Below are positions 14,092 to 14,349 of a stretch of 42,759 bases of DNA, piece by piece. The notes below the pieces were generated by a model. That model made no database searches. It had not been told where the DNA came from and saw only the letters and a list, made by a program, of their open reading frames with translations. A program made the position numbers and the translations under genes. Numbering within the stretch: position 1 is the stretch's first letter; every line of letters starts with the position of its first letter. This DNA comes from an uncultured Gammaproteobacteria bacterium (GTDB lineage: Bacteria > Patescibacteriota > Patescibacteriia > SG8-24): NCBI GenBank assembly GCA_964491475.1, contig CAZBFO010000003.1, positions 208,534 to 251,292 on the forward strand, in the 5' to 3' direction.

Positions 14092-14349
14092 ATGAGTCGA
14101 AAGAACAAACGCAACAAGAAACCCGCGCAAACCAAGACCGCGACCCTCAAGGTCACGCCCGTGCAGGGCGAGGCGACCGAGACGGCCGTCCAGGTCGCCA
14201 AGGGTTCGACCGTCGGGAGCGCCCTCCAGCAGGCGGGCATCTCCACGGAGCGGAAGAACGTCACCGTCGACGGCAAGCCCGCGGACCTCGACGCGCCGCT
14301 GGCCGCCGGACAGACGGTCAACGTCGAGGAACGTCCGCAAGGTTCCTGA
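14092..14349 (+). CDS. Ubiquitin-like beta-grasp protein (ThiS/MoaD/Ubl fold)
   Basis: VAKGSTVGSALQQAGI, VTVDGKPADLDAPLAAGQTVNV pattern; ends EERPQGS; SD GGAGGA. Confidence 0.8.
   Translation: MSRKNKRNKKPAQTKTATLKVTPVQGEATETAVQVAKGSTVGSALQQAGISTERKNVTVDGKPADLDAPLAAGQTVNVEERPQGS

Follow-up and report, generated by a model that had tools for sequence, protein, structure and literature searches.

The 42.7-kb stretch of DNA analyzed here (the window) contains a gene for a ubiquitin-like protein (Ubl) with a predicted β-grasp fold that ends in Gly-Ser, and this ending is near-invariant across some 90 protein clusters of one family. The gene is the last of a three-gene cassette that also encodes a miniature E1 and a large E2-like protein, and no peptidase is linked to it. 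We propose that Ser85 is retained and is directly adenylated as the reactive residue, a reading to which we assign a probability of about 0.45. The wider proposition, that this is a natural β-grasp modifier and the first with a reactive C-terminal serine, served by a minimal Cap2-like E1 and E2-like transfer with no maturation step, is put forward slightly more tentatively still.

The translation of the Ubl ORF is MSRKNKRNKKPAQTKTATLKVTPVQGEATETAVQVAKGSTVGSALQQAGISTERKNVTVDGKPADLDAPLAAGQTVNVEERPQGS, followed directly by a stop codon. The ORF is a real gene, as judged from its Shine-Dalgarno site, its codon composition, its own terminator, and the identity of independently assembled contigs. 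Its GC3 of 0.86 is similar to that of the other genes in the window, which has a GC content of 64%, and over positions 14050–14420 the window agrees exactly with contigs assembled from two sequencing runs of a single rock-metagenome study. A preliminary description of this DNA had read a Gly-Ser end and a basic N terminus from the sequence, and both readings are correct for the 85-residue product, which ends in EERPQGS. It had also considered that the ending might be a sequencing error. This is ruled out by the identity of the contigs from the two runs and by the roughly 90 relatives with the same ending. Read-through or recoding of the stop codon is ruled out as well, because the relatives use TGA, TAG, and TAA and have a terminator behind each; a hairpin with a T-run is also present 3' of this gene at each of the eight other loci that were compared. 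The features of the cassette are listed in Table 1.

Table 1. Features of the Ubl cassette, in window coordinates
Feature	Position	Strand	Description
Terminator-like hairpin of the upstream EEP-hydrolase gene	11645–11667	+	5' limit of the three-gene unit
Large E2-like protein	11772–13430	+	552 aa from MSALLF; ORF opens at TTG 11742
Miniature E1, ThiF-type adenylation domain	13408–14061	+	217 aa; Pfam ThiF 2e-12
Shine-Dalgarno site of the Ubl gene	14082–14088	+	GGAGGAG, 4 nt ahead of ATG
Ubl ORF	14092–14349	+	85 aa; begins MSRKNKRNKKPAQTK, C terminus EERPQGS, then stop
Basic N-terminal tail of Ubl	14092–14139	+	Residues 1–16, MSRKNKRNKKPAQTKT; no secondary structure predicted
β-Grasp core of Ubl (predicted)	14140–14331	+	Residues 17–80; order strand-strand-helix-strand-strand
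C-terminal tail of Ubl	14332–14346	+	R81-P82-Q83-G84-S85; family hallmark E-R-P-x-G-S-COOH
Stop codon directly behind Ser85	14347–14349	+	TGA; TGA, TAG, or TAA in relatives
Intrinsic terminator of the Ubl operon	14368–14399 (hairpin and T-run, 14368–14389)	+	9-bp stem with 6 G-C pairs, T-run

Three of the first relatives of the Ubl came from a word-indexed protein search, and a fourth was found adjoining a homolog of the large E2-like protein. All of the four to five close homologs, which are 62–84% identical to the window Ubl, end in VEERPQGS. A search of 1.84 billion cluster representatives with a HMMER profile of the Ubl core (residues 15–85) yielded 124 matches at E ≤ 1e-3. Together with the close relatives and two extra sequences from the protein search, the profile matches define a family of 91 single-domain proteins of 48–159 residues, or 87 non-redundant members after removal of near-copies of the window Ubl. 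The C-terminal consensus of the family is V-x-E-R-P-x-G-S-COOH. Among the 91 members, a set in which the weak matches are enriched for tail-bearing sequences because the search profile included the tail motif, the last residue is Ser in 89 and the next-to-last is Gly in 86. Counting back from the C terminus of the 87 non-redundant sequences, position −1 is Ser in 85 and Ala in 2; position −2 is Gly in 82 and Ser, Asn, or Ala in the rest; position −3 is variable; position −4 is Pro in 64; position −5 is Arg in 73 and Lys in 10; and position −6 is Glu in 86. No member of the 91 has Gly as its last residue, none has more than one residue beyond the Gly position, and nothing extends past the terminal Ser. 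The Gly-Ser ending is far more common in the family than chance would give. The comparison of homolog C-termini that the preliminary description had called for confirms it as a shared trait, and none of the 91 members has the Gly-Gly end that would have spoken against it.

All single-domain matches above about 55 bits end in Ser behind an E-R-P tail (11 in Gly-Ser and two in Asn-Ser or Ser-Ser). The more distant members also share the same gene neighborhood, which provides evidence independent of the tail-biased profile. At the DNA level, the nine loci that could be compared encode the Ser as TCC or TCA and between them use every Gly codon and every stop codon; in the close homologs the Gly codon is GGT, GGC, or GGA. 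Because the codons and the stop contexts vary while the peptide stays constant, the ending is under selection at the protein level. No relatives with the VTERPQGS pattern were found among viral contigs, and tblastn of the Ubl against phage records gave no match; an origin in a phage or plasmid finds no support in these two sources.

A second group of matches to the profile consists of tandem poly-Ubl proteins with two to four β-grasp repeats (P0013, P0015, P0016, P0025, P0041, P0045, P0047, P0099, P0115, and P0122). Each repeat, and usually the whole protein as well, ends in K/R-G-N, or in some cases in G-A, and the Asn occupies the register that the terminal Gly has in the Gly-Gly-ended matches. 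Judging from the sequences of this group, non-Gly last residues may be more widespread among bacterial Ubls.

The AlphaFold2 (AF2) model of the Ubl, computed with five sequences, has a pLDDT of 73.7 and places β strands at residues 16–22, 29–34, 55–59, and 75–80 and a helix at residues 41–47, with residues 1–15 unstructured. In a Foldseek search with this model, the leading matches were Caldiarchaeum ubiquitin, RnfH, NEDD8, ISG15, SUMO, SAMP1, MoaD, and Urm1, and nearly all of the top 50 were ubiquitin, NEDD8, SUMO, ISG15, SAMP1, MoaD, or Urm1. A family profile built from 81 sequences matched Pyrococcus furiosus SAMP2 (5lda_B), the closest solved relative, at 8e-7 and PF1061 at 9.5e-7 among the PDB sequences, followed by weaker matches to MoaD, TtuB, and ThiS. 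The window Ubl alone matched the Pfam families SAMP2 (5.9e-5) and ThiS (4e-3), both under the curated cut-offs. The window Ubl is predicted to be a ThiS/SAMP2-like β-grasp protein, and the model, the Foldseek matches, and the SAMP2 profile match all support the earlier assignment of this fold.

When the family profile is aligned with the SAMP2, PF1061, MoaD, TtuB, and ThiS chains, equal numbers of residues are left over at the end (7 versus 7, 6 versus 6). The distance from the conserved turn glycine (Gly-73) to the C terminus is 12 residues, the same as in the Gly-Gly-ended matches P0078, P0104, and P0131. The equal leftover and the equal distance put the Ser in the place of the reactive Gly, with Gly84 in that of the penultimate Gly. 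The R-L-R-G-G end of ubiquitin and the R-P-Q-G-S end of the window Ubl agree in register in the same manner.

The Ubl gene, the miniature E1 gene, and the E2-like gene form a unit that occupies 11.7–14.4 kb of the window. With a terminator-like hairpin on its 5' side and a terminator 3' of the Ubl gene, this unit looks like one three-gene operon. In all nine readable loci, where the identity of the Ubl to that of the window ranges from 28 to 84%, a ThiF-type gene of 204–225 codons lies directly upstream of the Ubl gene. All six of the loci that reach further upstream have an E2-like gene ahead of the E1 gene, encoding a protein of 450–563 residues with no Pfam match. The genes that flank the cassette differ among lineages, which marks the cassette as a self-contained module. 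It was found in Patescibacteria and related uncultured bacteria. A scan of genome contigs with the E2-like alignment brought up just one other metagenome-assembled genome.

The absence of a JAB gene from the operon, as claimed in the preliminary description, holds more broadly: no JAB/MPN gene is present in the operon, among the roughly 36 ORFs of the window, or among the called genes of the other loci. No peptidase recurs next to the cassette in the nine loci, and the only protease among the window ORFs is an HtrA-type gene at 37116–38528, about 23 kb from the cassette. Nowhere in the window or the other loci is the cassette linked to a sulfurtransferase, rhodanese, thiamine, or molybdopterin gene.

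Several features of gene order were noted in and around the cassette. The start codon of the E1 gene lies 23 nucleotides inside the end of the E2-like gene (13408–13430), and a similar overlap is seen in loci L001, L002, L004, L007, L008, L010, and L011; its recurrence suggests translational coupling of the two genes. In the window, a CYTH-AAA_28 fusion gene (14445–15581, minus strand) is convergent to the Ubl operon and is adjoined by a gene for an NT5C-like nucleotidase (15688–16257, minus strand). The AAA_28 gene is in the same place in L002 and L004, though not at the loci more remote from the window. Downstream of the cassette and on the same strand, L007 encodes a 585-residue AAA ATPase (4844–6601) and L010 an AIRS/PurM-like protein (6640–7740), neither of which recurs elsewhere. 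In L003, the gene after the Ubl gene (889–2547) encodes an unrelated 552-residue protein that has no Pfam match. It carries an HEVAH (HExxH) motif and on this basis might be a metallopeptidase. This gene is not kept at the other loci.

An alignment of the miniature E1 with its relatives reveals the invariant elements GxGSVG, Asp-50, Asp-52, Ser-56–His-57–Asn-58, Lys-73, Asp-110, Arg-115, Asp-133-Thr-Arg, and Cys-172-Gly-x-His-175-Gly. The match to E. coli ThiF (1zud; 1.4e-9) spans the nucleotide-binding half, and through this alignment the invariant Met61 falls where MoeB has Arg73. The E1 also has an invariant S-H-N where S-N-L would be and an invariant C-G-x-H-G in the flexible loop. The missing equivalent of MoeB Arg73 and these unusual motifs suggest that chemistry at the ATP site may differ from that of canonical E1s. 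The AF2 model of the E1 has a pLDDT of 79 and a pTM of 0.82. Residues 166–176, which contain Cys172, are modeled with low confidence, as expected for a mobile crossover loop. The best Foldseek match of the model is the E1 domain of Enterobacter cloacae Cap2 with the C terminus of CdnD02 (7tsx, 7tsq; E 1.4e-10, TM 0.68), and the next are ThiF, AclA, Uba4, MccB, UBA5, and Atg7. The PADLOC "E1-E2" models match the window E1, and no PADLOC model matches the Ubl or the large E2-like protein.

In the large E2-like protein, an N-terminal domain whose fold is unknown is followed by a coiled coil and a UBC-like C-terminal domain, and the protein closes with an acidic tail. Its motif HPHINDVGHPCFGN corresponds to HPH-x7-C-x-GN, which includes Cys419 and is invariant in eight E2-like sequences. 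The invariant residues of the C-terminal domain are His-409, Pro-410, His-411, Cys-419, Gly-421, Asn-422, and Glu-433. UBC-fold E2 enzymes carry an HPN-type motif some 10 residues ahead of the catalytic Cys. An hhalign comparison with human UBE2D2 covers 62 columns and places HPH on HPN and Cys419 on Cys85, with a probability of 25% and a pairwise E value of 8e-4. Database comparisons returned little: the E2-like profile gave only coiled-coil matches and no E2 among the PDB sequences, Pfam UQ_con matched one of five E2-like proteins at an E value of 0.16, and Pfam gave no match for the window protein. From its conserved motif and the weak profile match to UBE2D2, the large protein is likely, rather than proven, to be an E2 enzyme. 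In its N-terminal half, the residues that are invariant across six sequences with 25–51% identity are limited to Gly, Pro, Trp, and Tyr. A peptidase hidden in this protein is unlikely, because the half lacks an invariant Cys, His, Ser, Asp, or Glu.

In the proposed scheme, the Cap2-like miniature E1 would bind the E-R-P-x-G-S tail and adenylate the α-carboxylate of Ser85. The invariant Cys172 in the E1 loop would receive the Ubl as a thioester, and the Ubl would then move to Cys419 in the HPH-x7-C-x-GN motif of the E2-like domain before its final transfer to a target amine. Three elements of this scheme are inferred: the adenylation of the Ser, the relay by way of thioesters, and the kind of target that is modified. 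The scheme would require no maturation protease, which would explain why none is encoded in the cassette.

The preliminary description had offered two explanations for the Gly-Ser end, namely that a peptidase encoded in trans removes the single Ser, or that the E1 adenylates a non-Gly terminus. Both are still the main candidates, and the balance has moved toward the second, because the Ser (otherwise Ala) is more conserved than the preceding Gly (85 versus 82 of 87), no other extensions occur, the Ser is in the register of the reactive Gly, no peptidase recurs beside the cassette, and a relative of the E1 handles Ala. Adenylation of a C-terminal Asn by MccB, an E1-like enzyme, is a known case of a non-Gly substrate. 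The nearest structural relative of the E1 acts on an Ala-ended substrate, an analogy that favors retention of the Ser: the E. cloacae Cap2 substrate CdnD02 ends in Ala, and the cGAS proteins of CBASS end in Gly or Ala (PMC10097602). Against this stands the observation that mutation of the C-terminal Gly to Ser in E. coli CBASS abolished both thioester formation and conjugation (PMC10097602), so that a Ser end is not accepted by every bacterial E1. The same result speaks for a reading in which Ser85 would be a one-residue cap, removed as a maturation or activation switch by a JAB/MPN protein, carboxypeptidase, or housekeeping protease encoded elsewhere, which would expose Gly84 for the E1. We consider such a cap the main rival, less probable than retention of the Ser. 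The near-invariant Gly at −2 would also suit trimming to a Gly end, and a terminal Gly is the reactive end in every characterized β-grasp modifier. Single-residue caps are known from yeast Atg8 and from the end of polyubiquitin genes. Capped precursors include yeast Atg8 (with a terminal Arg), UFM1, SUMO, NEDD8, and the last polyubiquitin unit, with caps that vary in residue and in length and with the dedicated proteases Atg4, UfSP, SENP, and deubiquitinases (DUBs). The present family resembles such precursors in having a single residue beyond a conserved Gly. It differs from them in that the extra residue is nearly invariant, being the most conserved position of the tail after Glu(−6), in that it is always single, and in that no protease is linked to it at any of the nine loci; the HtrA-type gene is the only protease gene in the window. 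Removal of the Ser would also leave a tail one residue shorter than those of ThiS, MoaD, and SAMP2, and the five members without Gly at −2 would react through Asn, Ser, or Ala anyway.

Two further explanations are each given little weight. The Ser side chain could itself take part in the chemistry, through an N-to-O acyl shift that yields a reactive Gly ester, through cyclization of the Ser-adenylate, or through modification of the hydroxyl by the E1. The strict conservation of the Ser, with Ala as the sole alternative, and the non-canonical ATP site of the E1 (Met61 in place of MoeB Arg73, S-H-N, and the C-G-x-H-G loop) are compatible with this, and side-chain chemistry on a C-terminal Asn is carried out by the E1-like MccB. 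However, the two Ala-ended members have no hydroxyl, and the invariant Cys residues in the E1 loop and the E2-like domain suit an ordinary thioester relay, which makes a role for the side chain improbable. It is just as doubtful that the Ubl is not conjugated through its C terminus at all and acts instead as a ThiS/MoaD-type sulfur carrier or as a non-covalent adaptor, the tail being a binding epitope for the E1 or the E2-like protein. The closest sequence relatives (SAMP2, PF1061, TtuB, MoaD, and ThiS) do include sulfur carriers, and sequence comparison gives the E2 assignment weak backing. On the other side, every cassette that reaches far enough has an E2-like gene with the invariant HPH-x7-C-x-GN motif, which aligns with the HPN and Cys of UBE2D2, no gene of sulfur-carrier pathways is linked to the cassette, and the sulfur carriers known so far likewise depend on a terminal Gly.

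The basic N terminus, in contrast to the C-terminal tail, is not shared by the whole family. Residues 1–17 of the window Ubl contain seven Lys or Arg and no Asp or Glu. In the 81-sequence alignment, the segment ahead of strand 1 has 0–34 residues with a median of 8; Lys accounts for 203 of its approximately 690 residues, and acidic residues are nearly absent. A long basic tail (at least 12 residues with at least 5 Lys or Arg) is found in 20 of the 81 members, and 23 have 5 residues or fewer at this place. On a poorly resolved tree of the core, the trait changes 11 times, compared with 17.9 ± 1.3 times when the labels are shuffled, which indicates that the tail is clustered yet labile. The Lys/Arg-rich tail is a variable, optional add-on of some lineages, and it cannot be essential to the mechanism of the family because only some members have it. 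A functional role of this tail, for which the preliminary description had suggested nucleic-acid targeting or a supply of Lys for chain formation, finds no support as a trait of the family.

In the four loci that have a basic tail and for which both partners are known (the window, L001, L002, and L004), the E2-like protein has a long extension that ends in an acidic run, which in the window reads EEKEEEKNDDASAQP (end region 13340–13427). L007, L008, L010, and L011 have neither the long E2-like extension nor the basic Ubl tail. This co-occurrence suggests electrostatic pairing of the two tails. The four loci with tails come from one clade, so that the pairing counts as a single evolutionary observation. 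For the lineage of the window, possible roles of the basic tail are contact with the acidic tail on the E2-like protein or the provision of acceptor lysines.

The cassette can be compared with several known systems. With ThiS, MoaD, SAMP2, and TtuB, the Ubl family shares the predicted β-grasp fold, a profile match, the length from the last strand to the C terminus, and a ThiF-type E1 partner. Those proteins end in Gly-Gly, whereas this family ends in Gly-Ser behind Glu-Arg-Pro; the cassette also differs in that an E2-like protein accompanies the Ubl and that neither a JAMM nor a sulfurtransferase partner is present. The likeness to Cap2 of Type II CBASS lies in the E1, as seen from both the structural match and the PADLOC models, and Cap2 is a bacterial E1 that adenylates a non-Gly (Ala) end (PMC10097602). 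In Type II CBASS, an E2-E1 fusion acts on a CD-NTase and there is no Ubl, whereas the E1 and E2 genes are separate here and are accompanied by what is predicted to be a true β-grasp Ubl. No CD-NTase, effector, or Cap3 JAB of Type II CBASS is encoded in the window operon. With MccB, which acts on MccA, the likeness is that of a ThiF-fold enzyme that uses a non-Gly C-terminal residue. The substrate of MccB is a heptapeptide and the product an antibiotic, with no E2 and no conjugation to protein.

The Bil (BilABCD) and Bub systems are likewise bacterial operons that encode a Ubl together with an E1 and an E2, and the N-terminal extensions of their Ubls can vary. Both encode a JAB or DUF6527 peptidase that exposes a terminal Gly, and the window cassette encodes neither. 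The four-gene Bil set in particular includes a JAB, which is found neither in the cassette nor in the rest of the window. In Bub, the E1 crossover loop has a Tyr and no Cys, the catalytic residue of the E2 is a Ser, and the peptidase is of the DUF6527 or JAB type (PMC11601596). The Tyr/Ser oxyesters of Bub, in which both catalytic Cys residues have been replaced, differ from the present cassette, where Cys172 of the E1 and Cys419 of the E2-like protein are invariant. A JAB was present in all five types of E1/E2/Ubl operon described by Iyer et al. (2006). In the literature searched, neither a Ubl with a Gly-Ser end nor a Ubl cassette of this kind in Patescibacteria is described.

All characterized Ubl modifiers and sulfur carriers react through a terminal glycine, and a narrow E1 channel is the usual reason given. 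About 90 protein clusters in which the terminal serine is nearly invariant, and which come with a dedicated minimal E1 and an E2-like partner and without a linked protease, offer a direct test of this glycine rule, and the family could show how an E1 active site adapts to a side chain. The three proteins, all small or medium-sized, should lend themselves readily to reconstitution in E. coli. If the Ser is indeed the reactive residue, a Ser-linked isopeptide would probably resist the JAB and DUB isopeptidases specific for Gly-Gly, which would explain a cassette without a deconjugating enzyme. The tag would then be permanent in effect, or protected from phage or host enzymes that might remove it, and the Ser hydroxyl might permit chemistry that is impossible for Gly. 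The cassette is a pointer to a compact system for protein tagging, hitherto undescribed, in the ultra-small Patescibacteria, a group about whose cell biology very little is known.
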